Below are positions 1 through 50,225 of a DNA stretch of 50,264 nt, piece after piece; the stretch's first letter is position 1, and each line of letters begins with the position of its first letter. A model generated the notes under the pieces. It ran no database searches, was not told where the DNA came from, and saw only the letters and a program-made list of their open reading frames with translations. A program made the position numbers and the translations under genes. This DNA comes from a virus (taxonomy: Duplodnaviria > Heunggongvirae > Uroviricota > Caudoviricetes), in the IMG/VR virus record IMGVR_UViG_2925891887_000005. The stretch is one strand, 5' to 3'.

Positions 1-1749
1 ATGACAGTGGCAAATTATAATTCTCTTGTCCAGAAAACTTTCTGCGAAAATGCAATTCGTTCCGTTGTCATGATTGATGACGATTTTCTGACGTATTCTG
101 AATCAATCAGGGCGTTGAATAACGAAGTTGATTTAGACTACAACAAAATTGACTCATCTAAACGAGCCGCTACTCTTGAGAGCTTTTTTCAATCTAAAAA
201 TATGATTTGTGATGTTGACAATGGTTCTGTTAATTTCGATGTGGATCGGATTAGAAAATCAGATCTTATTATTGTAGATTATCATCTTGATAATAATGCA
301 CCTGATAAAACACTTAAACTATTACAAGATTTGAAAGACTCCGATCATTTAAATATGATTGTAATATATACTAGAGAGAATTTAGAAACGGTTTGGATGC
401 AGATATCATCGACTCTCAAAGGTGCTCTGGATATCAACAGCTTGATCATTGACTACGATAATGAAGATGTCCAAAGTTATTGGGAAGACGTTGTATTACC
501 GAACTTAAATGATAATGGTAATAAAGCTCTCACAAGAGATGAAACAATAGCCTATATTAAAGACAGTAAGCCTTGTAGAAGAATTAAAAGATTAATACAT
601 GATGATGCTGTGTTGGAGGATCAAAAGGATAAAAACTTCATTGCAAAAATGATTGCAGAATATGCTGTGTCTAGAAATGCAATTATTTCTAGCAACACAT
701 CTGGCAATGTCATTCGGGGTGATGAAAGCGGAGTAAAATGGATTCAATGTGGTAATATCTTTGTCTCCCTATTTCATAAGGTTCAAGATGATCATGAAAA
801 CGATGGAGATAGGATTTGGCAAACTCTCAATGATTCTCTCATTGAATGGAAACCATCTTATTATCAGTTAATAAAATCTGAAATTCAGAATGCAATCGAA
901 GCTGAGGCTTTATCTTTTGTAAATCATTTGGCTAACGATCATTACGGTCAAGCTGCGTGGTTAAATGAGATATTAAAATCAGACTCGCCAGATATTAGAT
1001 GTAGAAATATTGACTTTGTATTTGGTAATTTATCAGAAGAGCTTTATCAAAGACTTAAAAATAATAATACGCTGGATGAATTTATCAAAAGTGTTTTTGA
1101 TAGCTATTCAAATGAATACGCTAACAGCGGAGTTGCTGCATTGCTCCAATATTGCTCTTCAAAAATGGATCTGCCATCAAATAATGATACTTATCACGAA
1201 ATGTATCATGCTTTAAATATGAATTTGTCTTCAAAGAATTTTGAAGATGGTCATATTTCTACTGGCACTATTTTCTTTGATACAGAGTCGAACAAATGGT
1301 ATTTATGTGTATCTGCGGCATGTGATTTGGTTCCTACTCAGGGTAACGACCCTCACCATGTAAGATTAAGTCCGCACAGGCTCATTAAAGTTCTGGAGCT
1401 TTTTAACGCCAGTCAGAGTAAAGCATTGCCATTTGCTGAACATTCGAAATATATATATGTAATGCATAAAAATCAAAGAAAATATCTCTCTATTTTCGAA
1501 GGGGATAAAACGCTTCCTGTTGTTGATTATATGGTGGTGTTGAATCATGGAACAACAGTTGATGGCGAAGAAAAAAATATTATTTCTGCCGTGTTTTTAA
1601 GTAATATGGATGGCAACGTGCAAAATGTTCCTGTCCGACTCAAACTTAAATCTCAACTGAGAACTGGTTATGCAGAAAGATATCAGGCTATAGCGTCTCA
1701 GTATAGCTCAAGGATTGGTGTGGATTATGTATCAATGATGCTACCATAA
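1..1749 (+). CDS. Hypothetical 582-aa protein with a CheY-like receiver (REC)-like N-terminus and a large uncharacterised C-terminal region
   Basis: Long ORF starting with ATG exactly at window position 1, so upstream context is unseen. N-terminal pattern VVMIDDDF ... DLIIVDYHLDNN ... MIVIYTRE fits the beta1 acidic pair, beta3 Asp and beta4 Thr of receiver domains. Visibly AT-rich compared with the phage core. Confidence 0.6.
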   Translation: MTVANYNSLVQKTFCENAIRSVVMIDDDFLTYSESIRALNNEVDLDYNKIDSSKRAATLESFFQSKNMICDVDNGSVNFDVDRIRKSDLIIVDYHLDNNAPDKTLKLLQDLKDSDHLNMIVIYTRENLETVWMQISSTLKGALDINSLIIDYDNEDVQSYWEDVVLPNLNDNGNKALTRDETIAYIKDSKPCRRIKRLIHDDAVLEDQKDKNFIAKMIAEYAVSRNAIISSNTSGNVIRGDESGVKWIQCGNIFVSLFHKVQDDHENDGDRIWQTLNDSLIEWKPSYYQLIKSEIQNAIEAEALSFVNHLANDHYGQAAWLNEILKSDSPDIRCRNIDFVFGNLSEELYQRLKNNNTLDEFIKSVFDSYSNEYANSGVAALLQYCSSKMDLPSNNDTYHEMYHALNMNLSSKNFEDGHISTGTIFFDTESNKWYLCVSAACDLVPTQGNDPHHVRLSPHRLIKVLELFNASQSKALPFAEHSKYIYVMHKNQRKYLSIFEGDKTLPVVDYMVVLNHGTTVDGEEKNIISAVFLSNMDGNVQNVPVRLKLKSQLRTGYAERYQAIASQYSSRIGVDYVSMMLP

Positions 1750-1820
1750 TTATTATATTTTAGGCGTGGTGATTTTTTTTCGCCATGCCTATTTTATATT
1801 TATCATCACAATGATGTTGT

Positions 1821-2237
1821 TTATTTTTGTTTAAGTCTTCTAAGCTTCATGCATTCTAATGAGAATAATAATAGAGTTGTGCTGTATATAAAGCCAGAGT
1901 TAGTTAATAACTTTAAATTTAATGCTTCAGGATTTTCACTGAGAAAGTGAAAGGCATAAACTAAGTATACAGCTAAAGTAGCCGTTCCAATTGTTGGTCC
2001 AATATCGCCTTGATCATGAGGTTCAAGGTTTACATTGAACTTGAAGATTAGCCATTCAAATCCCCAAGTAAAAAAAACAACTAATATCATGGCTGCGAAT
2101 AATTTCGCGATGTTATCTGCTGATGGATTCATCAGAACAGATTGTTTCTGAAAAAATTCACAAAGTGAGAGTCCGAAAAAAATAAAAAAAAGTGGTCTGG
2201 AACTAAATTTTTCAAAAACTTTGAATAGGGTTTCCAT
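1821..2237 (-). CDS. Small integral membrane protein (about 4 predicted TM helices), function unknown
   Basis: 138-aa ORF with four hydrophobic stretches (LFFIFFGLSL, AAMILVVFFTWGFEWLIF, TIGTATLAVYLVYAFHFL, GFIYSTTLLLFSL). AT-rich. Convergent with the 1-1749 ORF and directly downstream of the P4-like integrase. Confidence 0.5.
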   Translation of the reverse strand: METLFKVFEKFSSRPLFFIFFGLSLCEFFQKQSVLMNPSADNIAKLFAAMILVVFFTWGFEWLIFKFNVNLEPHDQGDIGPTIGTATLAVYLVYAFHFLSENPEALNLKLLTNSGFIYSTTLLLFSLECMKLRRLKQK

Positions 2238-2275
2238 TTTCTTTACCTTCAGGATTATATTAGCTATTCTGATAC

Positions 2276-3505
2276 TTAGGCTACCAGAGCATTTGATCTT
2301 TGAGCTTGAACGTAATCACTCCACCATTGCATCAAACTCTGTCGCTCTATCAGATATTCTGCACGATTGTATGCTGCGATAATTTCATCTTTTTTCGAGT
2401 GGGCAAGCGCTGCCTCAAGAACTTCAGCTCTGAATTTACCAGACTCCTCTGCCGCTGTTCGTGCAATAGAACGCATACCGTGAGCTACAAGCTCGCCTCC
2501 GAACCCCATTCGGATGATAGCTGCGTTGGCTGTTTGTTCATGCATATGATTAAGAGGCGCTTTTATGCTGGGGAAAACCCATTCTCTATGCCCACTTATT
2601 GATTTCATTAATTCAAGGATGCGCAAAGCTTCTTTACTCAAAGGAACTTTGTGAAGCTTTTTCATTTTCATGAAATCAGCAGGAATGTTCCAAATGCTGT
2701 TGGTTGTATCAATATCAGACCACCTTGCGCGAACGGCTTCACCCGGACGAACCCATGTCAACAATTGCCATTCAATTAGCATACGTGTTTCCAACCGGAT
2801 TGACGCATTCGTCAAAGATTCCATAAACCTTGGCAATTCGCTTGGGGGAAGGGCAGGCATATTTTGCTTTTTTGGTTTACTGAATCTTTGACCAAGGTTG
2901 TCAGCCGGGTTGAACTCAATAAGTTCTTCAGTAGCTGCCCACCGGAAGATTTCATTCAGACGTGAAATGATACGGCGTAGAGTTTCCAATACGCCTCGTT
3001 GCTCAATAGGATCAAGGTGTTGTTTTAAGAGCTTAGGTCGGATCTCATTGATAGGGACATTACCCAGACCGGGAAAGACATTTCTCTCTAAGCTGCGCCA
3101 GATGTCTGCTGCATGGTCTTGTGAGATACCTGATGTCTTTACCTTCTCATCTAACCATTTCCGCGCTACGGCTTGGAGAGTGTGCTCAGTAGCACTCTTT
3201 AATGCCTTCGCCTTATCGTTGTTATGGATTTGGGGATCAACACCATTTGCCAGAAAGGAGAGATATTCATCACGTAAGGCTCTGGCTCTTGCAAGGGTAA
3301 GGTGAGGATATGTCCCAAGGCTCATTTTGGTTCTTTTCTTGCTCACTGGTACTGCATACCTGAAATACCAATTTTTCTTGCCTCCTTTCGCCAAAGGAGC
3401 GATTCGTAGAATCAGACCATCACCGTCAAACAAGTTGATTTCTTTATCGGCTGGCTTGGTACTTTTGATTTCAGTGTCAGTGAGCTTCTTAGCGATTTTT
3501 GCCAT
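2276..3505 (-). CDS. int: P4-family tyrosine integrase (N-terminal DUF4102-type arm domain)
   Basis: N-terminus KKLTDTEIKSTKPADKEINLFDGDGLILRIAP...WYFRY is the signature of CP4-57/P4-type integrases; C-terminal catalytic region present. Start chosen at internal MAKIAKK (the track ORF extends to 3547). Lies beside the ssrA 3'-end remnant. Confidence 0.85.
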   Translation of the reverse strand: MAKIAKKLTDTEIKSTKPADKEINLFDGDGLILRIAPLAKGGKKNWYFRYAVPVSKKRTKMSLGTYPHLTLARARALRDEYLSFLANGVDPQIHNNDKAKALKSATEHTLQAVARKWLDEKVKTSGISQDHAADIWRSLERNVFPGLGNVPINEIRPKLLKQHLDPIEQRGVLETLRRIISRLNEIFRWAATEELIEFNPADNLGQRFSKPKKQNMPALPPSELPRFMESLTNASIRLETRMLIEWQLLTWVRPGEAVRARWSDIDTTNSIWNIPADFMKMKKLHKVPLSKEALRILELMKSISGHREWVFPSIKAPLNHMHEQTANAAIIRMGFGGELVAHGMRSIARTAAEESGKFRAEVLEAALAHSKKDEIIAAYNRAEYLIERQSLMQWWSDYVQAQRSNALVA

Positions 3506-3670
3506 TTTGGGACCCTCGGTTTTTGGACCCTTCTTAGTGGGTCCCATTCAGGGTGCCATAACTCGTAGTTCTCAGCAATTCTCACTGGACGACAATAGAC
3601 GTAAAAAAGCCCGCAGAGCTTGTGCTGTGTGGGCTTAGTAGACTTCATTGAACTTCAAACAACTAAAAAG

Positions 3671-3700
3671 TGGTGGAGCTGGCGGGAGTTGAACCCGCGT
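3671..3700. repeat. 30-bp direct repeat of the ssrA 3' end (attachment-site core; left prophage boundary)
   Basis: tggtggagctggcgggagttgaacccgcgt at 3671-3700 is identical to 49863-49892, the 3' terminus of intact ssrA; flanking sequence diverges on both sides. Confidence 0.85.
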
Positions 3701-3841: not shown

Positions 3842-4765
3842 ATGGAACTGTTGATTTCCCCAAAAAGATTGTGCCTTTATAATGATTCTGATCGCCGTGT
3901 TACAGCTAAGTTTTTGAACTCAGTTGATAACACCCTTGCGAGAGCATCTGGACAAGTGGTTATAGACTTTTCGACAGTAGAATATGCAGGTGCTGCAGCT
4001 AGCGTAAGGTTGTTTGCTATCATCAGTAGGGCTTATTTTATGGCATTCGGCACAAGTAGTCTTCGATTTATTTGGCCGAAAAAAGAAAATAATCCGTATG
4101 GGCATCGATATATTGTTGGGACGGGGTTATCGATTGCTCTAATGGCAAATACAGTTGATAAATTAGATGTTCTTACTAAGGAACGCAGGTACTTTCAGTC
4201 TGCTGTGGAACCGTATGAACATTGGGCTAAAACGATGGAATTTATTGATTCAAAAGCAATTCTCACATTTGAGCAATATCTTTTGGTCTCCTCAGCCCTT
4301 AGTGAGGCAATGCTGAATGTTTCATATCATGCATATGAACATCCAGACTTTGCTGGTGCTACAGAGCATATGCAAGGGAAACGATGGTGGCAGAGTTGTT
4401 GGTACAACCCTGACACAGACAAGGTTGTCTTTATTATTTATGATCTTGGGCTTGGCATACATAAATCATTTACTTCAGCCTCTCCGTTGTTTACTGGGTA
4501 TGACGACGTGACATCTGTGTCAACAGCCCTGACAGGAGGACAGTCCAGATATGTTAACGCTGGACGTGGTAATGGTTCTGAGGATATAAAGAGACCTATA
4601 GGGTCTGGCTGTGCGAATTCAGAATCACTTTTGGTGTTCACAGGGAATGTTAAGTACAGCTATAATTCAAGAAATGAGGTTCCCAAATGCGAGTGGATAC
4701 CTGAGTACATGCCGGGAACATTGATTGAATGGTCATTAGTTCCGAGGAGAGGAGAAGATGGTTAA
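3842..4765 (+). CDS. GHKL-type (histidine-kinase-like) ATPase-domain protein, possibly with an N-terminal STAS-like segment
   Basis: N-box-like SEAMLNVSYHAYEH, G1-like IIYDLGLGI and G2-like GRGNGS...IGSG motifs in the C-terminal half. N-terminal VVIDFSTVEYAGAAASVRLF resembles STAS-like folds. GAGG ribosome-binding site 8 nt upstream of the ATG. Confidence 0.6.
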   Translation: MELLISPKRLCLYNDSDRRVTAKFLNSVDNTLARASGQVVIDFSTVEYAGAAASVRLFAIISRAYFMAFGTSSLRFIWPKKENNPYGHRYIVGTGLSIALMANTVDKLDVLTKERRYFQSAVEPYEHWAKTMEFIDSKAILTFEQYLLVSSALSEAMLNVSYHAYEHPDFAGATEHMQGKRWWQSCWYNPDTDKVVFIIYDLGLGIHKSFTSASPLFTGYDDVTSVSTALTGGQSRYVNAGRGNGSEDIKRPIGSGCANSESLLVFTGNVKYSYNSRNEVPKCEWIPEYMPGTLIEWSLVPRRGEDG

Positions 4766-5099
4766 CATCGTCATAGCAAGGGATTTCTCAAAGATGCCAT
4801 TTGGAAGGTTCAAGTCTGACAGCCCGAACAGTGCTGAGCGTTTTCGTAAGGACTTTCTGGTTCCTGCATTAAAATCTGGTGAGCGTGAGGTTGTCGTAGA
4901 TTTTACGGGTATAAATCATGGGATTGGTTCTTCGTTTCTAGAGGAGGCCTTTGGAGGGCTTGTTAGGAAGGAAGGTGTACCTAAGGCTGACATTAAGGCA
5001 AAACTAATTATAAAAAGTGATTTGCCGTTCTATAAAGATCAAATTTTTAGATATATTGAAATGGCTAATCCAGAAAGGAAGCCTTTCCAAAGGAGTTGA
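4758..5099 (+). CDS. STAS-like (DUF4325-like) small protein, putative partner of the upstream GHKL ATPase
   Basis: 113 aa. Motif VVVDFTGINHGIGSSFLEEAFGGL matches the conserved core I recall for STAS-like/DUF4325 domains. ATG overlaps the upstream stop (translational coupling) and follows a GAGGAGAGGAG ribosome-binding site. Confidence 0.55.
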   Translation: MVNIVIARDFSKMPFGRFKSDSPNSAERFRKDFLVPALKSGEREVVVDFTGINHGIGSSFLEEAFGGLVRKEGVPKADIKAKLIIKSDLPFYKDQIFRYIEMANPERKPFQRS

Positions 5100-5100
5100 T

Positions 5101-5730
5101 TTGAACACCGTTGATATTAAGGACACCCTTGCAGGGGTGTCCACTTACGCATGGATGTTTAGTGTTGTGAGTATTATCTTAGTGTTTATTGGATGGTTTG
5201 TTACTTACAATAATTCACTGAAGATTGCTACTCGCTCTGAATCTAAATCGATTATAGATGCGATTGCTAAAATTTTAAACGAAATATCGGATTTGTCTCT
5301 GGATTACTGGGTTAATAAGTCAACACCACCAGATTCTAATCCATTTAAGAAAAAAAGTTTTAAGAACTCTAATGGATTGCATACTCAGTCGGCGAAAATA
5401 TATTTAACGGCAATTCATGGAAAAGCCATACAAATAAATAAATACATTAATCTTCTCGATGAGAGGGGGATAAAAATAACAATTTCGTATTTTTCTAATA
5501 TTATAGATGAAGCTACTATGGAATGTGAGAAATCATATTGTTTTAATAAGTCATATAGGGTTTTTCGCGCTCAGAATGTATCTAGTGCTTGTATCGATTT
5601 CATAATGCATTTATATGATTCTTTTCAAAAAAATCATCCTCCACGTAAGCCTGTATATGTATTGAAAACATTAAAACAATTGGATTGTTACTTGGATAAA
5701 TGGCATAATGAATTATGTGGGCGGCAATAA
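5101..5730 (+). CDS. Membrane-anchored protein (single N-terminal TM helix plus about 170-aa soluble domain), function unknown
   Basis: Track ORF is 5017-5730. AAGGAG sits 5 nt before an in-frame TTG at 5101, immediately after the upstream stop; alternative starts are ATG 5017 or ATG 5155. TM segment YAWMFSVVSIILVFIGWFVTY. Very AT-rich. Confidence 0.5.
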   Translation: MNTVDIKDTLAGVSTYAWMFSVVSIILVFIGWFVTYNNSLKIATRSESKSIIDAIAKILNEISDLSLDYWVNKSTPPDSNPFKKKSFKNSNGLHTQSAKIYLTAIHGKAIQINKYINLLDERGIKITISYFSNIIDEATMECEKSYCFNKSYRVFRAQNVSSACIDFIMHLYDSFQKNHPPRKPVYVLKTLKQLDCYLDKWHNELCGRQ

Positions 5731-5742
5731 ATGCCGCCATAA

Positions 5743-6909
5743 TCATTGTATAATGTATTTGATGGAGCTTTTTCCGTCGTATTCTTTGAGATATCGACCA
5801 TAGTGCCTGAAAAGCATCTCCGGCCCTTTATGCCCCATTTGAGCTGCAAGCCAAAACAGGTTTGCTCCTCGGCTGATATGGCTGGTGGCGAATGTATGCC
5901 TGGTTTGATATGGGTTTCTGTAACGAATACCTGCTTTTCGCAATGTTGGCACCCATGCTTTTTTCCTAATTGCATCAGCACTTGCCCAAGGCTTATTGGT
6001 CTTTGGATCTTCAAAGACAGTAGTATCCTTCATGAATGTAAATGGCTTCTGATTTATCAGCGCCAACATTGCCTCTTCTGTCAGTTCAACTTTCCGAGTA
6101 CCTGCTTTTGTCTTTGTCCCTTTGATAACACCGACAACACTTGCGCTCTGGACATAGGCAGTTTTTCCAACAAAGTCGATATCACGCCATCGAAGGGCAC
6201 ATAATTCAGAACTACGCAGGCCTGTATGTATAGCGAACCGGAACAGATTTTCCCATTGTTTGTTTCCGGCTGCTGCTAGTAATGCATCAACTTCTGCTGG
6301 TGATAGCGGATCAACTACGTAGCTGCTTTCTGCTTCTGACTTATCACTTTGGTAGCGCGAAGCTGTTACTAACGATACGGGGTTAATTTGAAGTACCCCA
6401 TCGGTCACGGCTTCATCAAGTGCTGACCGCAGGAAAGATAACTGGTTGCGAATTGTTTTTAAGGTCGTTTTCTGATTTTGAATCCACGCTTTCAGGGTTG
6501 CTGGTGTTAATTCACTTGCAGGGCAAATGTGAAGTGAGGCTAACGCACTACGGCATTTTTTATAGCCACCAATCGTAGAGGGTGAAAGTTTTCTTGTTTC
6601 GCAGATTTCAAGATATTCGTCCAGGTACATCTTTACCGTTTTGCCTGCAGCAGCATTACCAAAAATTTTCAAACGAGCAGAACGGGGAAAATATTCTGCA
6701 TAAATGAATGTTCCCCTTTCGATCTTATTATGGATTTCGCCGAGTGTACGCTCGGCGTATTTAATGTTCTTTGGTGTTACTTCCAGATTGGAAAGCGGCT
6801 CACGACATCTAACTCCTTTGTAGGTGAAAGTTATATTGATCGTTTCTCCCTGGCGGTGTTTCCTGATTGTTACGCCGCGCGGTAGTTTGAGCAGTTTTGT
6901 CTGGCCCAT
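5743..6909 (-). CDS. int: Prophage tyrosine integrase (lambda-type, arm-binding N-terminus)
   Basis: 388 aa with a catalytic C-terminus (R...HxxR...Y pattern: RHTFATS, LFRHYGRY) and an N-terminal arm-type domain. Immediately downstream of xis in the leftward operon. Confidence 0.9.
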   Translation of the reverse strand: MGQTKLLKLPRGVTIRKHRQGETINITFTYKGVRCREPLSNLEVTPKNIKYAERTLGEIHNKIERGTFIYAEYFPRSARLKIFGNAAAGKTVKMYLDEYLEICETRKLSPSTIGGYKKCRSALASLHICPASELTPATLKAWIQNQKTTLKTIRNQLSFLRSALDEAVTDGVLQINPVSLVTASRYQSDKSEAESSYVVDPLSPAEVDALLAAAGNKQWENLFRFAIHTGLRSSELCALRWRDIDFVGKTAYVQSASVVGVIKGTKTKAGTRKVELTEEAMLALINQKPFTFMKDTTVFEDPKTNKPWASADAIRKKAWVPTLRKAGIRYRNPYQTRHTFATSHISRGANLFWLAAQMGHKGPEMLFRHYGRYLKEYDGKSSIKYIIQ

Positions 6910-7117: not shown

Positions 7118-8008
7118 TTAACGAATAGTGTCGTTACTTTGAAGTACAGCAAATGCCATTAATACTTCTAAAGTATATCTTCTATAAAATTTAACAAAAC
7201 CAACATAGAAAACATAGACGAAGAAAAAGCTAAGCATTATTGAAAGTAAACTATAAAGATAATCACTATGAGTACATAATCGATAAATAAAGGTTGGAAC
7301 TGATACCCAAAATGAAATTATAAAGATTAAACATATGTTTCTGCAAAAACCATATAATGCAACATAGTTTTGAATTTTTGTTTGATGTTGTTTTGAAAAC
7401 TCATAAACATAATGATATGCCAATCTGAAGAGATCATCATCAAGTCCGTTTTTATCTTGTAATAATTGGCGATTTGTTATGAACTTTTTCTCATAACCTT
7501 CTTTGATCATTAACCATGTTGTATTAGCTAAATGAAATGGTAGAGATTGAGAATAACATAGTTTTTGTGTTATAAAATCCCATAGTATTATTGGGCATAA
7601 TACGCATTTGATTATGCGATTCTTTATTTTTGTTTTTTTATCAGCGCTTCTCTCATCGCATGATGGGCTACAAATGCTTTCTGAGGTATCTATCAATTTT
7701 TTAAATAGATATTTGGAAGGATATCCTAATTCTTTATTCATGTGTTTTTCGATAAAAAATGCTGACGTGATAGAAATAAAATGTCCAGCTATATAAGATA
7801 TAATAACTATTGAAGCGTAGTTCAAAATGCCAAAGATTTGACTTTGACCTCTGAGCAATTCACTTAAGTCAATAACAATATCTAGATCGAATGTCAAACC
7901 ACAGAAATACATTAATAGGATAAAAAAACCACCTGGTATTAAATATCCAAGAAAGTCATAGAATGAGAATGGATTTTGATTCATTGTTGCTCTCCAATAA
8001 TTGTTCAA
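7118..8008 (-). CDS. Polytopic membrane protein, unknown function (moron in the early-left operon)
   Basis: 296 aa with at least four hydrophobic helices at the N- and C-termini; extremely AT-rich, contrasting with flanking phage genes. Confidence 0.5.
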   Translation of the reverse strand: MNNYWRATMNQNPFSFYDFLGYLIPGGFFILLMYFCGLTFDLDIVIDLSELLRGQSQIFGILNYASIVIISYIAGHFISITSAFFIEKHMNKELGYPSKYLFKKLIDTSESICSPSCDERSADKKTKIKNRIIKCVLCPIILWDFITQKLCYSQSLPFHLANTTWLMIKEGYEKKFITNRQLLQDKNGLDDDLFRLAYHYVYEFSKQHQTKIQNYVALYGFCRNICLIFIISFWVSVPTFIYRLCTHSDYLYSLLSIMLSFFFVYVFYVGFVKFYRRYTLEVLMAFAVLQSNDTIR

Positions 8009-32049: not shown

Positions 32050-32387
32050 CGCGGGAAATGCAGTTTGTCATGCGGCTTGCCCGGGAGTTCCGGCGGGCAG
32101 ACTGGCGGCGGATGCTGTCGGAAATGTCGGCCACTGAGCTTGGTGAATGGGGCGATTATTTCCGGATGCAGAGCTTCAGTGATGTGTGGATGGATGCGCA
32201 GTTTGCCTCGCTGAAGGCATTGATCGTGAGAATGGTGTCCGGTAGCAGTGATGCTGCGGTGGCTGATTTCAGCCTTTTACCGGAAGAGAACGGGATACCG
32301 GAGCGAACGGACGAAGAACTGATGCATCTTGGGGAAGGTATTTCCGGAGGTGTGCGTTATGGACCAGATAGCCAACCTGGTCATTGA
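32025..32387 (+). CDS. T: Tail assembly chaperone T segment, expressed as a G-T fusion by -1 programmed frameshift
   Basis: The -1 frame is open from 32025 and encodes lambda gpT-like sequence (EFRRADWRRML...GISGGVRYGPD). Slippery-like CCGGAAAAG lies just before the G stop. Confidence 0.7.
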   Translation, partial: GADAGKVLTREMQFVMRLAREFRRADWRRMLSEMSATELGEWGDYFRMQSFSDVWMDAQFASLKALIVRMVSGSSDAAVADFSLLPEENGIPERTDEELMHLGEGISGGVRYGPDSQPGH

Positions 32388-42036: not shown

Positions 42037-42046
42037 TGGGGTGAAT

Positions 42047-45000
42047 ATGGCAGTAAAAATTTCAGGTGTACTGAAAGACGGCACAGGAAAACCGGTACAG
42101 AACTGCACAATCCAGCTGAAAGCAAAACGTAACAGTACCACGGTGGTGGTGAACACGCTGGCATCTGAAAATCCGGATGAAGCCGGGCGTTACAGTATGG
42201 ACGTTGAGTACGGTCAGTACAGCGTTATTCTGTTGGTGGAAGGATTCCCGCCGTCACATGCCGGGACCATCACAGTGTATGAAGATTCCCGACCCGGTAC
42301 GCTGAATGATTTTCTCGGTGCCATGACGGAGGATGATGCCCGTCCGGAGGCACTGCGCCGTTTTGAGCTGATGGTGGAAGAGGTGGCGCGTAACGCGTCC
42401 GTGGTGGCACAGAACACGGCAGCCGCGAAGAAGTCAGCCAGTGATGCCAGCACATCAGCCCGTGAGGCGGCAACCCATGCGACTGATGCTGCAGGCTCAG
42501 CACGCGCAGCCAGCACGTCAGCCGGACAGGCCGCGTCGTCGGCTCAGTCAGCGACTTCCAGCGCAGGAACGGCATCAACAAAGGCCACTGAAGCATCAAA
42601 AAGTGCTGCCGCTGCAGAGTCCTCAAAAAGCGCGGCAGCTACCAGTGCCAGTGCCGCGAAAACGTCAGAAACGAATGCTGCAGCGTCACAACAATCAGCA
42701 GCCACTTCTGCATCCACCGCGACCACGAAAGCGTCAGAAGCTGCCACTTCAGCCCGGGATGCGGCGGCTTCAAAAGAGGCGGCAAAATCATCAGAAACGA
42801 ACGCATCCTCGAGCGCCAGTAGCGCAGCTTCCTCGGCAACAGCGGCAGGAAATTCCGCGAAGGCGGCAAAAACGTCAGAGACGAACGCCAGGTCTTCTGA
42901 AACGGCAGCGGGACAGAGCGCCTCGGCTGCGGCAGGCTCAAAAACAGCGGCTGCGTCGTCTGCCAGTGCAGCGTCAACAAGTGCCGGGCAGGCCTCAGCC
43001 AGTGCCACCGCCGCCGGAAAATCGGCAGAAAGCGCCGCATCGTCTGCTTCAACAGCCACAACGAAGGCTGGCGAAGCCACTGAACAGGCCAGCGCAGCAG
43101 CGAGGTCTGCTTCCGCAGCGAAGACATCCGAAACGAACGCGAAAGCGTCGGAAACCAGCGCAGAATCCTCAAAAACGGCTGCCGCATCGTCAGCCAGTTC
43201 GGCGTCGTCATCGGCATCATCTGCGTCTGCTTCAAAAGATGAGGCGACCAGACAGGCGTCAGCAGCGAAGGGTAGCGCCACGACGGCATCCACGAAGGCG
43301 ACAGAGGCTGCTGGTAGTGCGACGGCTGCAGCTCAGAGCAAAAGTACGGCGGAATCTGCAGCAACGCGCGCTGAGACAGCGGCAAAACGGGCAGAGGATA
43401 TTGCATCCGCCGTGGCGCTTGAGGATGCGAGCACGACGAAAAAGGGGATAGTACAGCTCAGCAGTGCGACCAACAGCACTTCCGAGTCACTGGCGGCAAC
43501 GCCAAAAGCCGTTAAGGCCGCGTATGACCTGGCTAACGGGAAATACACCGCACAGGATGCAACGACAGCACAGAAAGGGATAATCCAGCTAAGCAGCGCG
43601 ACCAACAGCACGTCTGAAACGCTGGCGGCAACGCCAAAGGCAGTAAAAGCAGCCAATGACAATGCTGAGAAACGTCTGCAGAAAGATCAGAACGGTGCGG
43701 ATATCCCTGGCAAAGACACCTTTACGAAAAATATTGGTGCCTGCCGTGCCTTCGGTGGGTCAGTAAGCACAACAACAGGAAACTGGACGACTGCACAGTT
43801 TATCGAGTGGCTGGATTCTCAGGGAGCATTTAACCATCCCTACTGGATGTGCAAGGGTTCCTGGTCTTATGGCAATAATAAAATCATTACTGATACTGGC
43901 TGCGGTAATATTCATCTCGCCGGAGCTGTCATTGAAATAATGGGGATAAAGTCAGCGATGACGATCCGCATTACCACACCGACCACCTCCACTGGTGGTG
44001 GAACAACTAACGCCCAGTTTACCTATATTAATCACGGAACAGATTATTCACCTGGCTGGCGAAGGGACTATAACTCCAGAAATAAGCCAACGGCATCAGA
44101 GATCGGGGCGTTACCGTCAGGTGGAACAGCAGTATCATCAGTTAATCTGTCTTCAAAAGGTCGGGTAACCGCGCTGACAGACAATACGCAGGGGGCAACA
44201 GGTCTTGAGTTATACGAGGTGTATAACAACGGATATCCAACAGCGTATGGAAATATCATTCACCTGAAAGGGATGACAGCCGTTGGCGAAGGTGAGTTAC
44301 TCATCGGCTGGAGTGGTACAAGCGGTGCTCATGCTCCGGCATTTATTCGTTCACGACGGGATACGACCGACGCAAACTGGTCGCCGTGGGCGCAGCTTTA
44401 CACCTCGGCTCATCCTCCTGCAGAGTTTTATCCAGTCGGTGCACCAATCCCGTGGCCATCAGATACCGTTCCGTCTGGTTATGCCCTGATGCAGGGGCAG
44501 ACTTTTGACAAATCTGCTTACCCGAAACTTGCAGCCGCTTATCCGTCAGGCGTGATCCCTGATATGCGTGGCTGGACGATTAAGGGCAAGCCCGCCAGTG
44601 GTCGTGCCGTATTGTCTCAGGAACAGGATGGCATTAAATCGCACACCCACAGCGCCAGCGCATCCAGTACGGATTTGGGGACGAAAACCACATCGTCGTT
44701 TGATTACGGCACTAAATCCACGAATAACACTGGTGCGCATACCCATAGTTTAAGTGGCAGCACGAATGCAGCTGGTAATCACAGCCATAGAGATGGCCGT
44801 CGATTTAACCCCAGTGTTTTTAAAGATACTTATCAATATGGTTATACAAGCTCAGGTCAAAATACCTGGGGTGTACAAGGCTCAGTAGGTATGTCTACGG
44901 GGTGGTTAGCGAATACCAGTACAGATGGTAATCATAGCCATTCACTGTCCGGCACAGCAGCATCTGCAGGTGCACACGCGCATACTGTCGGTATTGGTGC

Positions 45001-45118
45001 TCATACGCACTCCGTTGCGATTGGTTCACATGGACACACCATCACCGTTAACGCTGCTGGTAACGCGGAAAACACCGTCAAAAACATCGCATTTAACTAT
45101 ATTGTGAGGCTTGCATAA
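42047..45118 (+). CDS. stf: Side tail fibre protein Stf
   Basis: N-terminus [30 protein letters not shown] near-identical to lambda Stf; long Ala/Ser/Thr-rich repeat region; C-terminal His-rich fibre-tip region. Confidence 0.85.
42420..43450 (+). repeat. Imperfect tandem coding repeats (Ala/Ser/Thr-rich, recurring KTSETNA units) within stf
   Basis: Repeated GCxAAAACGTCAGAAACGAAyGC-like units; these generate long spurious ORFs in other frames and on the opposite strand. Confidence 0.6.
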
Positions 45119-45702
45119 TGGCATTCAGAATGAGTGAACAACCACGGACCATAACAATTTATAATCTGCTGGCCGGAACTAATGAATTTATTGGTGAAGG
45201 TGATGCATATATTCCGCCTCATACAGGTCTGCCAGCAAACAGTACCGATATTGCACCACCAGATATTCCTGCTGGCTTTGTGGCTGTTTTCAACAGTGAT
45301 GAGGCATCGTGGCATCTCGTTGAAGACCATCGGGGTAAAACGGTTTATGACGTGGCTTCCGGCGACGCGTTATTTATTTCTGAACTCGGTCCGTTACCGG
45401 AAAATGTTACCTGGTTGTCGCCGGGAGGGGAGTATCAGAAGTGGAACGGCACAGCCTGGGGGAAGGATACGGAAGCAGAAAAACTGTTCCGGATCCGGGA
45501 GGCAGAAGAAACAAAAAACAGCCTGATGCAGGTAGCCAGTGAGCATATTGCGCCACTTCAGGATGCTGTAGATCTGGAAATCGCAACGGAGGAAGAAAAC
45601 TCGTTGCTGGAAGCCTGGAAGAAGTATCGGGTGTTGCTGAACCGTGTTGATACATCAACTGCACCGGATATTGAGTGGCCAGAAGAACCAGACACCGTGT
45701 AA
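45118..45702 (+). CDS. tfa: Tail fibre assembly protein Tfa
   Basis: Lambda Tfa-like; TAATG overlap with stf. Confidence 0.85.
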
Positions 45703-45749
45703 GCAAAAAAGAAAAACCGCAGACACGACGTATGCATGACGTGCTGCGG
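45703..45749 (-). terminator. Bidirectional terminator between tfa and the GIY-YIG gene
   Basis: CCGCAG...CTGCGG hairpin flanked by an A-run on the plus strand and TTTTTCTTTTTT on the minus strand. Confidence 0.55.
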
Positions 45750-45771
45750 TTTATGCTTATCACTTAAAGAC

Positions 45772-46590
<819 letters not shown>

Positions 46591-46951
46591 TCATTGCAAG
46601 GGCTCACAACCAGTAGTGTTGAGAAAACCATCGGAGAAATGAGGCTAAGCCTTTGAATTTACATAGTACAAAAAAGATACTTTTCCTCATAATGTGAGCT
46701 AATTTTATGTTTCGTTTGATGATTGGACCGGTCTCGAAAACCGTAGACACATAGTATGCGTTAATTTATGAACAAACTACTTGTCTGCTGTTTTTCTGTC
46801 ATTAGTCGTATATAGAATGATTCTCTATGCCTAACAAAGCATCACCAGTGCTAGATTACGTTGTAGTCACTGTTTAAATATCCAGATAAAACATTTCCTT
46901 CTGGGTTGAATGAGTGATAAAGTTTCACCCATTAGACCCCTTGGAGGAATT

Positions 46952-48385
46952 ATGTCTGAATTTGAAGTGTTGGCACAGCATCTGCTGAAGGAAGCCGAGG
47001 CGGAAGAAAAGCTGCGACAGGAAAATGATAAAAAGCTTATCGAGAAAGTGCTGGAAATCTATGATCAGAAGTATGTGGCTGAATTACTGAGAAAAGTCGG
47101 AAAAAATGAGTGGAGCCGTGAAACCATTAACCGCTGGATTAATGGCAAGTGTTTACCAAAATCGTTGACTTCAGTAGAAGAGTCTCTTCTGCGTAAGATG
47201 CTACCAGAACCACCTGCAAACCATCCGGAATATGCTTTCCGCTTCATTGACTTATTTGCTGGAATTGGAGGGATACGGAAAGGTTTTGAGGCCATTGGAG
47301 GCCAGTGTGTTTTTACCAGTGAATGGAATAAAGATGCTGTGCGTACATACAAGGCCAACTGGTTTAACGATGAACAGGTGCATAAATTCAATCTCGATAT
47401 TCGGGAAGTCACGCTGAGTGATAAAACCGATGTATTGGAAACGGATGCTTATGCATATATTGATGAGCATGTGCCGGATCATGATGTGCTTCTTGCGGGG
47501 TTCCCGTGCCAGCCATTTAGCCTTGCTGGTGTTAGTAAGAAAAACTCACTTGGTCGTGCGCATGGTTTTGAATGTGAAGCACAAGGAACACTTTTTTTTG
47601 ACGTGGCACGTATTATACGAGCAAAAAAACCGGCAATTTTTGTGCTGGAAAATGTCAAAAATCTGAAGAGCCATGATAAGGGTAAAACTTTCAAAGTCAT
47701 TATGGAGACCCTTGACGAGCTGGGCTACGAAGTTGCCGATGCTGCAGAAATGGGAAAAAACGATCCAAAGATTATCGATGGGAAGCATTTTTTGCCTCAG
47801 CATCGTGAACGCATTGTTCTGGTCGGATTTAGACGAGATCTGAATATTCACAAGGGGTTTACCTTGCGTGATATCAGTCGTTTTTATCCGGAACACCGCC
47901 CATCATTTGGTGAATTGCTGGAGCCTGTAGTCGACAGTAAATATATACTTACGCCAAAACTATGGGAGTACCTTTATAACTACGCCAAAAAGCATGCAGC
48001 CAAGGGGAATGGTTTTGGCTTTGGGTTGGTCAATCCTGAGAATAAGGAAAGCATTGCACGCACACTTTCTGCCAGATATCACAAAGACGGATCAGAAATT
48101 CTTATTGATCGTGGTTGGGATATGGCAACGGGAGAGGCTGACTTTATGAATGAGAGTAATCAGGCTCGTCGACCACGCAGGCTGACTCCCCGAGAGTGCG
48201 CACGCCTTATGGGATTTGAAAAACCTGGAGGGAAACCATTCCGTATTCCGGTTTCAGATACTCAGTCATATCGGCAGTTCGGTAACTCAGTTGTGGTGCC
48301 AGTATTTGAAGCTGTTGCCAGACTTCTGGAACCCTATATCCTCAAAGCTGTTTCTGCTGATGCTGGTAAGACTGGGCAGCCTTGA
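46952..48385 (+). CDS. dcm: C5-cytosine DNA methyltransferase, Dcm / M.EcoRII-like (CCWGG)
   Basis: [17 protein letters not shown] (motif I), GFPCQPFS (motif IV), ENV (motif VI), QFGNSV; near-identical to Dcm/M.EcoRII as recalled. Start at MSEFE with a GGAGG ribosome-binding site; the track ORF starts at 46910. Confidence 0.9.
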
Positions 48386-48391
48386 GAACAT

Positions 48392-48414
48392 CTCCCGGCC
48401 TTTTAAGCCGGGAG
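48392..48414. terminator. Hairpin between the convergent methyltransferase and endonuclease genes
   Basis: CTCCCGGCcttttaaGCCGGGAG inverted repeat. Confidence 0.4.
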
Positions 48415-48419
48415 TCAGC

Positions 48420-49634
48420 CTATGATAGTTCAGCGTAAAGCTCTATCAGCTCAGTAATGAATGCTCCGAGCGTTATTAATTCTTCTCTAACTGCTTCTGG
48501 GTATTTTTTATGTAAAGTTGATGGTACAACGAGTCTGACACCCGCATCTTTCATTTCTCGGTATTGTGCTGAAGAAACACCTTCTTGCAGTGTAAATAAA
48601 TGTACCTGATGGATTTTATCTGCTTCATTCAGTATCTGACGCCAGCGATCTTTGCAGGTGGTCTTTACTGCCAGCATACGTAAGTTTTCTACAGGAAATT
48701 CAACGTTATGATATGCCTCTGCTGAAGGAAACAGGAAATCTGGTTTTTTATTACCTTCAGTAACTGCCTGAGTGGAGAAATGCCGTAGTCCGTGCTCGAT
48801 AAAAAGCTTCTCTAGGTGAAGTTCAAGTGATTTGCCTGCCCTTGATTTACGTCGATTACTGACAGAGTTGGCTAATGCAATAAACTCATCTACAGAATCG
48901 AATCCTTTCTTAATAATATCAAGAACATGTAATTCCTCGACGAGTAGAAAAATATCATACTCGACACGCCGACGGTCAATCAGTTGCTCATCTGGATCCT
49001 TGGAGTTTTTAGCATAATGGCCAGCAGCATATTGAATAATTTCGTTTCCAGAAGGAAAACGCTTCTTCCAGTCTTCAGGAATAACATATTTATGATTTAC
49101 TGGAGTTTGCTGAAGAGACAATCCGCCCAAAATTTGTCCGGCAGGGCCGGAAATTAGGGTTCCAGGTATGATTTCGCCAATAGCAGACTCGATGATATCC
49201 TCTTCATCGGGATTGACGCAGACCCATATATCTACCTCGGAACAGTCAGTGTTCTGTTCGTTTAACCTGAAAGCAAGAATTGTGAGGGCTCCTGTATTTT
49301 CAGGGTTCTGTAATGGACTTCCTCTCCCCCAGCGCGTAATTCTTTTTTCGTTTCGGGTCTTACCAAAATAACGGTTGTTGTAATAAATTGCGCGTGCTTG
49401 GGTATCAGGGCAATCATGGGATGATACATGCGCAGTAAGGAAGACTGAAGGGTTCAGTTCGCGAGTATGATTGATAGATGGAAAAAGCTTTTCAACGATA
49501 TTTGAGGGGATATAAAGTCCGACCTGATGGCCACCTGTTGCGCCTGTGTCGTTTGCAGAAAGGCGTTTGATGTAGATAAAGTAATTCCCGCTTGCGATAT
49601 CAAGCAGCCAGTTATGAAAAACCGACATATACAT
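48420..49634 (-). CDS. ecoRIIR: Type IIE restriction endonuclease, EcoRII-like
   Basis: 404 aa; N-terminus SVFHNWLL...YIKRLSANDTGATGGHQVGLYIP matches the EcoRII effector domain as recalled; convergent with the methyltransferase. Confidence 0.85.
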   Translation of the reverse strand: MYMSVFHNWLLDIASGNYFIYIKRLSANDTGATGGHQVGLYIPSNIVEKLFPSINHTRELNPSVFLTAHVSSHDCPDTQARAIYYNNRYFGKTRNEKRITRWGRGSPLQNPENTGALTILAFRLNEQNTDCSEVDIWVCVNPDEEDIIESAIGEIIPGTLISGPAGQILGGLSLQQTPVNHKYVIPEDWKKRFPSGNEIIQYAAGHYAKNSKDPDEQLIDRRRVEYDIFLLVEELHVLDIIKKGFDSVDEFIALANSVSNRRKSRAGKSLELHLEKLFIEHGLRHFSTQAVTEGNKKPDFLFPSAEAYHNVEFPVENLRMLAVKTTCKDRWRQILNEADKIHQVHLFTLQEGVSSAQYREMKDAGVRLVVPSTLHKKYPEAVREELITLGAFITELIELYAELS

Positions 49635-49711
49635 CCCTTTGTTAACATACAGTCAGGGTTAACATTTTTCCATAGTTATAGATAAGCGGCTAGGAACTTA
49701 AGGGAAAAACA

Positions 49712-49735
49712 AAAAGCCCGCATAAGCGGGCTTTT
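49712..49735 (-). terminator. Rho-independent terminator downstream of ssrA (within attR-proximal prophage DNA)
   Basis: Minus-strand AAAGCCCGCTTATGCGGGCTTT followed by TTGTTTTT. Confidence 0.55.
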
Positions 49736-49862
49736 GTGTCACTCGAGAGCCGCGGCTCCTTTGCGTATCCTTTTTTGTCTCCTCACCGTCTGGTCGGTGT
49801 CCTGCTGAGACTGCTAACTTCCTGTTTTTGTTGGTGTTGTCCTTACACCGTCCAATCATGAT

Positions 49863-49892
49863 TGGTGGAGCTGGCGGGAGTTGAACCCGCGT
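49863..49892. repeat. attR core: 3' end of ssrA, identical to the repeat at 3671-3700
   Basis: Exact 30-bp identity with 3671-3700. Confidence 0.85.
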
Positions 49893-50225
49893 CCGAAATT
49901 CCTACATCCTCGGTACTACATGCTTAGTCAGTCTTTACATTCGCTTGCCAACTGCGGACGGACACGCCACTAACAAACTAGCCTGATTAAGTTTTAACGC
50001 TTCAACCCCAGGCAGGGCTTCCACGCGATCTCTTTTGGGTTTGACCTCTCTTGATCCCCGTCCTAAGAGCGGAGGCTAGGGAGAGAGGGCTCTAAGCAGG
50101 TTATTAAGCTGCTAAAGCGTAGTTTTCGTCGTTTGCGACTATTTTTTGCGGCTTTTTACGAGGCCAACCGCCCCTCGGCATGCACCTTGGGTTTCGCAAA
50201 TCCCGTCGAATCCAGAATCAGCCCC
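49863..50225 (-). ncRNA. ssrA: tmRNA (SsrA), complete 363-nt gene
   Basis: Reverse complement reads GGGGCTGATTCTGGATTCGACGGG ... tag ORF GCAAACGACGAAAACTACGCTTTAGCAGCTTAA (ANDENYALAA) ... GGTTCAACTCCCGCCAGCTCCACCA; a TATACT -10 element lies just upstream at about 50240. Confidence 0.95.

Follow-up and report, generated by a model that had tools for sequence, protein, structure and literature searches.

The right end of this Escherichia coli prophage carries two convergent genes, one for a C5-cytosine DNA methyltransferase of the M.EcoRII type (M) and one for a type IIE restriction endonuclease of the R.EcoRII type (R; Table 1). Throughout, the window refers to the whole stretch of 50,264 nucleotides that was analysed (IMG/VR record IMGVR_UViG_2925891887_000005). 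The sequence-only reading had described a 477-aa M.EcoRII-like methyltransferase, starting at MSEFE, that converges on a 404-aa EcoRII-like endonuclease. The open reading frames are exactly so, and the two proteins share 91 and 87% of their amino acids with the plasmid-borne enzymes. PADLOC classes the pair as MTase_II and REase_II, and the Pfam E-values for the M and R domains range from 1e-27 to 1e-78. Both genes sit inside the att-bounded prophage, after the tail fibre assembly gene tfa and outside the core phage modules.

Table 1. Features of the prophage right end and of the prophage boundaries, with positions in the window.
Feature	Position	Strand	Evidence
Left att core, displaced partial copy of the ssrA 3' end	3671–3700		Direct repeat
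Phage integrase	5743–6909	−	
tfa, tail fibre assembly protein, last structural gene before the cargo	45118–45702	+	Pfam Caudo_TAP, E = 6.6e-44
Portable cargo module (CMoRE, M, R and att-proximal spacer), 4.2 kb	45714–49862		Recurrence across phage backbones
PD-T4-3/CMoRE, GIY-YIG type IV modification-dependent endonuclease, 257 aa	45772–46545	−	PADLOC, PDB
Presumed M promoter, autoregulatory operator and GGAGG ribosome-binding site	46871–46951	+	Plasmid-locus alignment
M, C5-cytosine DNA methyltransferase, M.EcoRII-type, 477 aa	46952–48385	+	ORF, Pfam, NCBIfam
Intergenic hairpin, 8-bp stem and 7-nt loop	48392–48414		Sequence, fold, plasmid alignment
R, type IIE restriction endonuclease, R.EcoRII-type, 404 aa	48420–49634	−	ORF, Pfam, PDB match
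Region upstream of R, with −10-like box TATAAC at 49674–49679	49635–49690	−	Plasmid-locus alignment
Terminator-like hairpin with T-run	49712–49735	−	Terminator scan: 10 pairs, 6 GC, then T-run
Right att core, ssrA 3' end	49863–49892		30-nt exact direct repeat with 3671–3700
ssrA (tmRNA gene)	49863–50225	−	Gene call

The MSEFE start of M follows a GGAGG Shine-Dalgarno sequence and is also the start used in RefSeq; an alternative ATG upstream, at 46910, would give a protein of 491 aa. At the N terminus, M has a repressor-type domain (Pfam PF18284, DNA_meth_N; aa 28 to 84, E = 6.6e-27), which precedes the catalytic domain (PF00145, DNA_methylase; aa 96 to 457). The protein matches NCBIfam PRK10458 with 927 bits, above the cut-off. 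All of its motifs were found: FAGIGG at 102, GFPCQPFS at 183 (with Cys186), ENV at 233, QHRERI (QxRxR) at 283, a conserved block at 409, and GNSV at 444. When aligned with plasmid M.EcoRII, M is 90.6% identical with no gaps, and the target-recognition region, between motifs VIII and IX, holds just 6 of the 45 substitutions. Given this identity and the few changes between these motifs, M is expected to methylate the inner cytosine of CCWGG.

R is a two-domain protein (EcoRII-N, PF09217, aa 18 to 165, E = 3.9e-61; EcoRII-C, PF09019, aa 229 to 393, E = 2.4e-71), and its RefSeq start lies two codons later, at 49628, giving 402 aa. A PDB search matched it without gaps to EcoRII (1NA6; E = 3e-243, residues 1 to 403), and its identity to plasmid R.EcoRII is 86.9%, again with no gaps. 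The catalytic and DNA-contact residues of R.EcoRII, 28 in all, have been listed (PMC2770665), and all 28 are kept in R. These include the four active-site residues (Glu271, Asp299, Lys324 and Glu337), whose positions are unchanged, the CC:GG readout (Lys328-Asp329-Arg330, Asn260 and Arg262), and the pocket for the flipped central base (Arg222, Glu225, Tyr226, Phe229, Arg265 and Ala266). The DNA contacts of EcoRII-N are likewise present in full (13 of 13: Asn28, His36, Gln37, Tyr41, Arg81, Tyr85, Lys92, Thr93, Arg94, Glu96, Arg98, Thr100 and Arg101). On the basis of the 87% identity and the kept residues, R would cleave unmethylated CCWGG, with a second site as allosteric activator.

The sequence-only reading had raised inactivating mutations in catalytic residues, and an endonuclease N-terminal effector domain unrelated to EcoRII, as possible faults of the system. 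Neither is present, since all 28 R residues and every M motif are intact and the effector domain is EcoRII-N. In comparison with the plasmid allele, dN/dS is 0.033 for M and 0.048 for R (dS about 1.65), and both genes are thus under strong purifying selection. It is very improbable that the pair is defunct or in decay and has no function today, as would hold for an orphan methyltransferase next to an inactive nuclease. A few IMG/VR copies do carry 1-nt deletions (in M in L023, L030 and L039, and in R in L040), which would fit such decay; these lie partly in homopolymer runs and are indistinguishable from sequencing error. Against decay, both open reading frames in the window are full length with all tested residues intact, the regulatory DNA is conserved, and 271 records share a 3.1-kb stretch with an identity of 99% or more.

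The stop codons of M and R are 34 nt apart, and the hairpin that had been noticed between them is indeed there, within this gap. Its stem arms are CTCCCGGC (48392–48399) and GCCGGGAG (48407–48414), and its fold of −16 kcal/mol is modestly better than that of shuffled sequences, 8 of 200 of which equal it. In the plasmid EcoRII locus, seven of the eight base pairs of the stem are the same, in contrast to the diverged loop and flanks. A role as a bidirectional intrinsic terminator is not supported, because the hairpin has no T-run on either strand, does not appear in the terminator scan, and has a z score of just −1.86. It is best described simply as a conserved hairpin.

Upstream of M, similarity to the plasmid EcoRII locus spans ~80 nt, with an abrupt onset at ~46871, and includes a 21-nt identical block (CTGTTTAAATATCCAGATAAA). 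Note that the fused repressor domain of M.EcoRII-type enzymes autoregulates (PMC12707154). The region upstream of R also aligns with the plasmid locus, and its −10-like box reads TATAAC here versus TATAAT in the plasmid; we infer that this is where the R promoter lies. The terminator-like hairpin beyond it, 128 nt downstream of ssrA, is contributed by the phage side of att and insulates R from ssrA transcription. Overall, the homology unit shared with plasmid EcoRII is compact, extending from about 46871 to 49690.

The prophage retains a complete set of structural genes as long open reading frames. GC content is 0.41 to 0.45 in the cargo module versus 0.50 to 0.62 in the structural genes. No CCWGG avoidance was detected in the prophage by site count (106 sites observed in the window versus about 90 ± 9 expected), and the ORFs of the cargo module include no candidate for vsr. 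The position that had been assigned to the pair, between tfa and attR, holds by tfa, ssrA and the 30-nt repeats, with one addition: the gene for the type IV nuclease CMoRE also lies there, between tfa and M.

We consider it highly improbable that the restriction-modification (R-M) genes are a separate islet that came by chance to lie between the prophage and ssrA, rather than phage cargo. The R-M genes do abut the att core, and the compactness of their plasmid-type homology unit would suit an islet. However, the att core occurs just twice in the window, and the phage and the R-M genes both lie between these two copies. The module also occurs in a circular phage genome that has a different att core, and is terminal in many predicted viral contigs.

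CMoRE, which makes up the first half of the cargo module, was identified by the PADLOC model PD-T4-3 (E = 7.6e-140, aa 1 to 256 of a 256-position model). It aligns over aa 1 to 257, C-terminal sensing domain included, with the E. coli O157:H7 CMoRE structure 9U75 (E = 5e-171), from which it differs by 9 substitutions in 257 residues (about 96.5% identity). The GIYxY-YIG motif of CMoRE has been described, as have its targets, DNA containing 5hmC or glucosyl-5hmC, and its inactivity on 5mC or unmodified DNA (PMC12923530). The tyrosines of this motif (Y17, Y19 and Y31) are present in the protein encoded here.

The module recurs outside this prophage. In NZ_CP081794.1 (L002), a 43.7-kb circular genome of a sheathed-tail phage that was deposited as a plasmid, it is 98.2% identical over 4178 nt, and the remainder of that record shares little with the window. 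We expected the ssrA att core in this circular record, but its core differs (TGGTGGGGGACGGAGTTGAGACC...), and the module is thus common to phages with different integration sites. Among IMG/VR viral contigs, 33 carry this R allele, with the cassette at the contig ends, CMoRE adjacent in 30 of the 33, and divergent tfa genes. These records show that the cassette travels with phages, in line with the claim that the R-M system would move with the phage. A pinE context was also found for the cassette, and in other genomes CMoRE occurs beside pinE without R-M. A 30-kb 'plasmid' (NZ_CP104634.1) was set aside as evidence of excision, because, with chromosomal pao genes on it, it does not represent a clean phage genome.

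The locus is thus probably a functional, self-contained EcoRII-type (type IIE, CCWGG) R-M unit, an accessory cassette (moron) that a lambdoid prophage at ssrA carries at its att-proximal end. By analogy with EcoRII biology, M would convert CCWGG in host and prophage DNA to C(5mC)WGG and, via its N-terminal domain, would repress its own promoter. Binding of a second CCWGG site by its B3-like N-terminal domain would release R from auto-inhibition; once activated, R would flip the central base pair and cut unmethylated sites. A lysogen would then be able to cut incoming DNA with at least two unmethylated CCWGG sites. CMoRE would cut the hydroxymethylcytosine DNA of T-even phages, which would evade the R-M enzymes, and 5-methylcytosine would be the only state attacked by neither nuclease.

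How far such a unit would protect a lysogen depends on the methylation of the DNA that enters it. A dcm-like match is present in 5366 of 5426 E. coli genomes. Two listed carriers of the allele each have a second methyltransferase place (places_in_record = 2), which appears to be the chromosomal dcm. EcoRII does not restrict plasmid DNA from dcm+ donors (PMC11602122). Given the near-universal Dcm methylation of CCWGG, the barrier should be confined to phage DNA that is under-methylated and to DNA that comes from dcm-negative sources. The earlier expectation that the system protects lysogens should therefore hold for DNA lacking CCWGG methylation but not for DNA from dcm+ donors, and the protection is narrow. 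The size of any defensive benefit among E. coli is uncertain, because the carriers that were checked appear to have dcm as well and plasmid DNA from dcm+ donors is unrestricted.

EcoRII is also a documented host-killing system, and Dcm cancels this killing, an effect described as 'molecular vaccination' (PMC2993543). The unit could in principle be chiefly a selfish addiction module, in which long-lived R kills the host upon loss of the prophage end and so stabilises it. Strain CFSAN061772 is suggestive here, as a heavily deleted prophage remnant at its ssrA has truncated structural genes and keeps exactly M and R. With Dcm in the hosts, however, post-segregational killing should be largely neutralised, and the carriers that were checked appear to have dcm. 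In addition, some database copies have a frameshifted M beside an intact R, which would be tolerable only if killing were neutralised. We therefore regard addiction as quite unlikely to be the main role of the unit.

Nor does it seem likely that the unit chiefly serves the phage, although several observations suit that explanation. Late read-through into M would raise its expression, and the roughly 100 CCWGG sites of the phage would then be fully methylated in progeny, which would be safe from EcoRII in their next host. Such transcripts would at the same time be antisense to the genes for R and CMoRE. R, for its part, might keep out superinfecting phage or break down unmethylated DNA in the lytic cycle, along the lines suggested for Burkholderia phage KL3. 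The orientation of the genes fits such read-through, with tfa and M on the + strand and CMoRE and R on the − strand, and so do the 106 unavoided CCWGG sites. Plasmid-type EcoRII, which progeny would have to escape, occurs in about 260 E. coli records, and the model proposed for the EcoRII-C, Vsr and methyltransferase module of KL3 offers a precedent (PMC3091744). However, the Dcm of the hosts already methylates CCWGG, and extra M would add completeness only. Moreover, M and R are each preceded by a conserved region of their own, as is typical of genes expressed in the lysogen. A self-contained R-M unit carried as a moron remains our preferred explanation.

The closest known relative of the locus is plasmid EcoRII, found on conjugative resistance plasmids. 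Both have M and then R in convergent orientation, a gap of 33 to 34 nt with a hairpin, proteins of 477 and 404 aa with no indels between them, and conserved regions upstream of M and R. Unlike the plasmid system, the one described here resides on temperate phages, at the att end, and is linked to CMoRE. E. coli Dcm belongs to the same methyltransferase family as M and presumably shares its CCWGG target; M matches the structure of Shigella Dcm (3ME5) with E = 4e-209. In contrast to M, Dcm is an orphan enzyme that is paired with vsr rather than with a nuclease, and the DNA identity between the two genes is only about 69%. Ecl18kI and PspGI, base-flipping nucleases for CCNGG and CCWGG, share the catalytic core fold and the KDR-type CC:GG readout with R. 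Their PDB matches to R are weak (E = 1.9e-4 and 4.3e-4), and both lack an effector domain and are distant in sequence.

EcoRII-family R-M on a temperate phage has a precedent in the P2-like phage KL3 (PMC3091744), to which the relation is distant. By tblastn, the KL3 enzyme is 39% identical to R over residues 171 to 397 only. Because this match is confined to the C-terminal half, the KL3 enzyme appears to be without the N-terminal effector domain. Its EcoRII-C, Vsr and methyltransferase genes are co-directional and include vsr, unlike those of the present locus. A protein search of INPHARED returned only KL3 (39% identity, C-terminal domain) and two faecal contigs, and a DNA search of its cultured phages with positions 46600 to 49700 gave no match. 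Thus, no sequenced, isolated coliphage can be named as a carrier of this allele.

CMoRE and the EcoRII-type R-M genes are ordinary known defence genes carried by a phage. PD-T4-3/CMoRE has been described as a single-gene system (9U75, 9U7U), whereas here it is tightly linked to EcoRII-type R-M. We suggest, tentatively, that the two may have been selected together as a portable 'cytosine-state' defence module, which would pass between unrelated temperate phages and lie at their att-proximal ends, with 5-methylcytosine as the sole state spared by both. Under this suggestion, R might be kept despite Dcm because it restricts under-methylated lytic-phage DNA or DNA from dcm-negative genera. The linkage is possibly selected in this way, though we would not call it probable.

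These findings leave the understanding of how EcoRII works unchanged. They do show that a textbook plasmid system also has a temperate-phage allele, usually in one module with a type IV nuclease. This matters in practice for phage therapy and wherever DNA is to be introduced into clinical E. coli, as DNA or phage prepared in dcm-negative laboratory strains should face restriction in such lysogens, and T-even phages should be targets of CMoRE. Why R is under strong purifying selection is a small evolutionary puzzle, given that host Dcm makes most incoming E. coli DNA immune.

Our literature search found no specific description of the E. coli prophage EcoRII allele or of its linkage to CMoRE, and a paper on the ST131 methylome mentions only Dcm. 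The allele is present, under generic annotation, in about 240 to 260 of 5426 complete E. coli genomes (roughly 4 to 5%). Its nucleotide identity to plasmid EcoRII is about 80% with synonymous sites saturated, and it is a discrete allele whose divergence from the plasmid one is ancient. When E. coli records are sorted by identity to M, 262 fall at 99% or above and 260 between 80 and 90%, with no intermediates. The whole stretch from tfa through CMoRE, M and R to ssrA is found in 240 genomes.

The M and R genes, an EcoRII-type C5-cytosine methyltransferase and its endonuclease, belong to the EcoRII family by every criterion that sequence can test. The M protein has DNA_meth_N and DNA_methylase domains, and the R protein has EcoRII-N and EcoRII-C (Pfam); the N-terminal effector domain is therefore related to that of EcoRII. 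R aligns without gaps to residues 1-403 of the EcoRII crystal structure 1NA6 (E = 3e-243), and the products are 90.6% (M) and 86.9% (R) identical, both gapless, to the EcoRII pair of plasmid pACN001-A. Using functional residues drawn from the EcoRII-DNA co-crystal paper (PMC2770665), we found 28 of 28 kept in R (4 active-site, 5 CC:GG readout, 6 flipped-base pocket and 13 effector-domain contacts). M has motifs I, IV (Cys186), VI, VIII, IX and X; of its 45 substitutions relative to the plasmid M, only 6 lie between motifs VIII and IX, the region responsible for target recognition. Catalytic residues are thus not inactivated. The ORF list confirmed both genes where the sequence-only reading had placed them, and its recognition of an EcoRII-type pair was correct and biologically sensible.

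Features of the cargo region, the att-flanked prophage and the adjoining island
Feature	Coordinates	Strand	Remarks
M ORF	46910-48385	+	477 aa from the MSEFE methionine at 46952 (ORF list)
R ORF	48420-49634	-	404 aa (ORF list)
PD-T4-3/CMoRE gene	45772-46545	-	between tfa and M; full-length PADLOC PD-T4-3 match, E = 7.6e-140
Terminator-like hairpin, strong	49712-49735	-	between ssrA and R gene (terminator scan)
ssrA	49863-50225	-	ARAGORN
Phage tyrosine integrase	5743-6909	-	between the att repeats
P4-type integrase	2276-3547	-	left of 3671; abuts displaced att copy; part of second island
307-aa ORF	within 3842-5730	+	no family match
113-aa ORF	within 3842-5730	+	STAS-like DUF4325 domain
237-aa ORF	within 3842-5730	+	weak 2TM effector match

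A GGAGG box lies immediately 5' of the M start, which RefSeq also chose; for R, RefSeq starts two codons further in, at 49628 (402 aa). The 34 nt between the two stop codons contain CTCCCGGC-CTTTTAA-GCCGGGAG (48392-48414), a hairpin with a fold of -16 kcal/mol and a z-score of only -1.86. Because 7 of 8 stem bp are retained in the plasmid EcoRII locus, where loop and flanks have diverged, we consider the hairpin conserved; but given this modest z-score, the absence of a T-run and the absence of a call in the terminator scan, its putative terminator role is unproven.

Both genes appear to be maintained, and their regulatory DNA is conserved too. Phage and plasmid alleles share only ~80% DNA identity, with synonymous sites saturated (dS ~1.65) and a dN of 0.056-0.079. 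The resulting dN/dS of 0.033 (M) and 0.048 (R), with constraint in both R domains, indicates purifying selection and contradicts the possibility that the system is inactive. Similarity to the plasmid locus sets in abruptly ~80 nt before the M start codon, including a 21-nt identical block, and a TATAAC/TATAAT box is preserved ~40 nt upstream of R. M.EcoRII uses its fused N-terminal domain to repress its own promoter (PMC12707154), and a domain of this type occurs in the window's M (Pfam). Within M, a T8 run (47585-47592) replaces the TTTTCTTC of the plasmid allele, and a second homopolymer, A7, lies at 47623-47629. Two IMG/VR copies (L023 and L030) are one T short in the T8 run, leaving M frameshifted and R intact; other 1-nt deletions occur in L039 (M) and L040 (R). 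Such deletions may reflect errors in sequencing; alternatively, they may be genuine M-minus/R-plus states tolerated thanks to host Dcm.

The R-M system is carried by the phage. The first 30 nt of the ssrA interval (49863 onward) recur exactly at 3671-3700. Strain Ecol_AZ146 has a near-identical prophage, and long ORFs between these att repeats match in length its genes annotated as terminase, portal, capsid, tape measure, J, Lom, tail fibre and tfa. The att repeats and the position of ssrA support the earlier placement of the R-M genes at the prophage right end, between tfa and attR, where the CMoRE gene, which that reading did not mention, also lies. The distance from the R-M genes to the right att core is 228 nt, and GC is 0.41-0.45 over the cargo versus 0.50-0.62 in the structural genes. 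Movement with the phage, also proposed earlier, is borne out by the same module in the circular phage record NZ_CP081794.1 and in 33 IMG/VR viral contigs; together with the att repeats, this circular record contradicts the alternative that the genes are not phage cargo. NZ_CP081794.1, a PLSDB entry, is a 43.7-kb phage genome (sheathed tail, baseplate, integrase, repressor) that has in common with the window essentially just the 4.18-kb CMoRE-M-R module (98.2% identity) plus a regulatory block of 3.9 kb. In it, a different, tRNA/tmRNA-3'-end-like att core (TGGTGGGGGACGGAGTTGAGACCGCAGCC; 32190-32220 versus window 49855-49892) directly follows the shared spacer, so the module boundary falls at the att core in both phages. 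The ~155 nt at 49708-49862, from the terminator-like hairpin to ssrA, occur at 92-93% identity beside ssrA in many R-M-free E. coli genomes and presumably represent the att arm belonging to a family of elements that integrate at ssrA.

The cassette recurs across E. coli records. Those that contain its 3.1-kb R-M stretch at no less than 99% identity number 271, and 240 genomes have the complete tfa-CMoRE-M-R-ssrA stretch; among PLSDB 'plasmids', three reach at least 99%. For the M gene, 262 records show at least 99% identity and 260 have the plasmid-type allele at 80-90%, with none intermediate. The R allele of the 33 IMG/VR contigs typically lies at the contig end, and their tfa is close to the window's, only ~35% identical or undetected. 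CMoRE is adjacent to R in 30 of these 33 loci and linked to R-M in about 240 E. coli genomes. Other genomes, such as O157:H7, have CMoRE beside pinE without R-M, and a heavily deleted ssrA prophage in strain CFSAN061772 (NZ_CP042893.1, 5876-9394) retains intact M and R beside ssrA without CMoRE. We therefore regard CMoRE and M-R as two units that can occur apart, although they usually move together in this lineage. In the CFSAN061772 remnant, the portal and tape-measure genes are both truncated and fused to each other; the DNA-circularisation gene is truncated too.

T-even phages evade classical restriction via hydroxymethylcytosine, and CMoRE would thereby complement the R-M system. The window's protein and the crystallised CMoRE of E. 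coli O157:H7 (PDB 9U75) differ at 9 of 257 residues (~96.5% identity). A type IV endonuclease, CMoRE degrades DNA containing 5hmC or glucosyl-5hmC but does not bind or cleave DNA that is unmodified or carries 5mC (PMC12923530), which makes it compatible with an adjacent methyltransferase. It guards native and heterologous hosts against Tevenvirinae (bioRxiv 10.1101/2024.12.20.629700; PMC12366544).

Host Dcm would limit what the EcoRII-type barrier can do. Of 5426 genomes covered by a sensitive DNA search, 5366 gave a dcm-like match, and the two listed phage-allele carriers each have, in those two records, a second matching chromosomal place, taken to be dcm. Dcm suppresses EcoRII host killing (PMC2993543), and EcoRII left all 13 conjugative plasmids unrestricted when they came from a dcm+ donor, yet restricted them when the donor was dcm-negative (PMC11602122). 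Given this prevalence and these results, the barrier should be open to most DNA from other E. coli and should take effect on DNA of dcm-negative origin; the proposed protection of lysogens would hold for the latter and not for the former. It possibly also acts on under-methylated lytic-phage DNA, a point for which the classical 'partial protection' work of Hattman and colleagues is reportedly the basis. Maintenance as a host-killing addiction module would suit the M + R-only remnant of CFSAN061772, but this explanation is undercut because Dcm cancels its force. A benefit to the phage is plausible: late read-through would raise M, leaving progeny DNA fully methylated, as the gene orientation and the precedent of phage KL3 suggest. 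There are ~100 CCWGG sites in the prophage, with no avoidance.

EcoRII-type R-M is itself a known family, and type II systems on temperate phages, including the EcoRII-C module of KL3, are already known (PMC3091744). The exact M and R proteins each occur in at least 1000 contigs under generic or EcoRII-domain names; our literature search turned up no description of this E. coli prophage allele or of its CMoRE linkage.

Other parts of the window also merit mention. The P4-type integrase left of 3671 indicates two elements in tandem at ssrA; window 1-3700 (GC ~0.34) includes a 582-aa ORF (1-1749, +) that opens at the first base and encodes a receiver-like domain (Response_reg_2), as well as a membrane-like ORF of 138 aa. 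Lying in the interval from the left att core to the phage integrase, the low-GC region 3842-5730 (+), which is free of CCWGG sites, holds three co-directional ORFs. A different single gene occupies this slot in Ecol_AZ146, and it may be a second cargo/defence slot at the integrase end. Beside the integrase, just inside the prophage, a very AT-rich patch (GC 0.30) contains a 296-aa multi-pass membrane-like ORF (7118-8008, -) with no Pfam match; in PADLOC it resembles only Csx27, and weakly (E = 2.8e-6). In the tail fibre gene (42041-45118, +), the long N-terminal half is of low complexity and rich in Ala, Ser and Thr, and a 107-nt tandem duplication (132-nt spacing, 77% identity) lies at 43422-43660.
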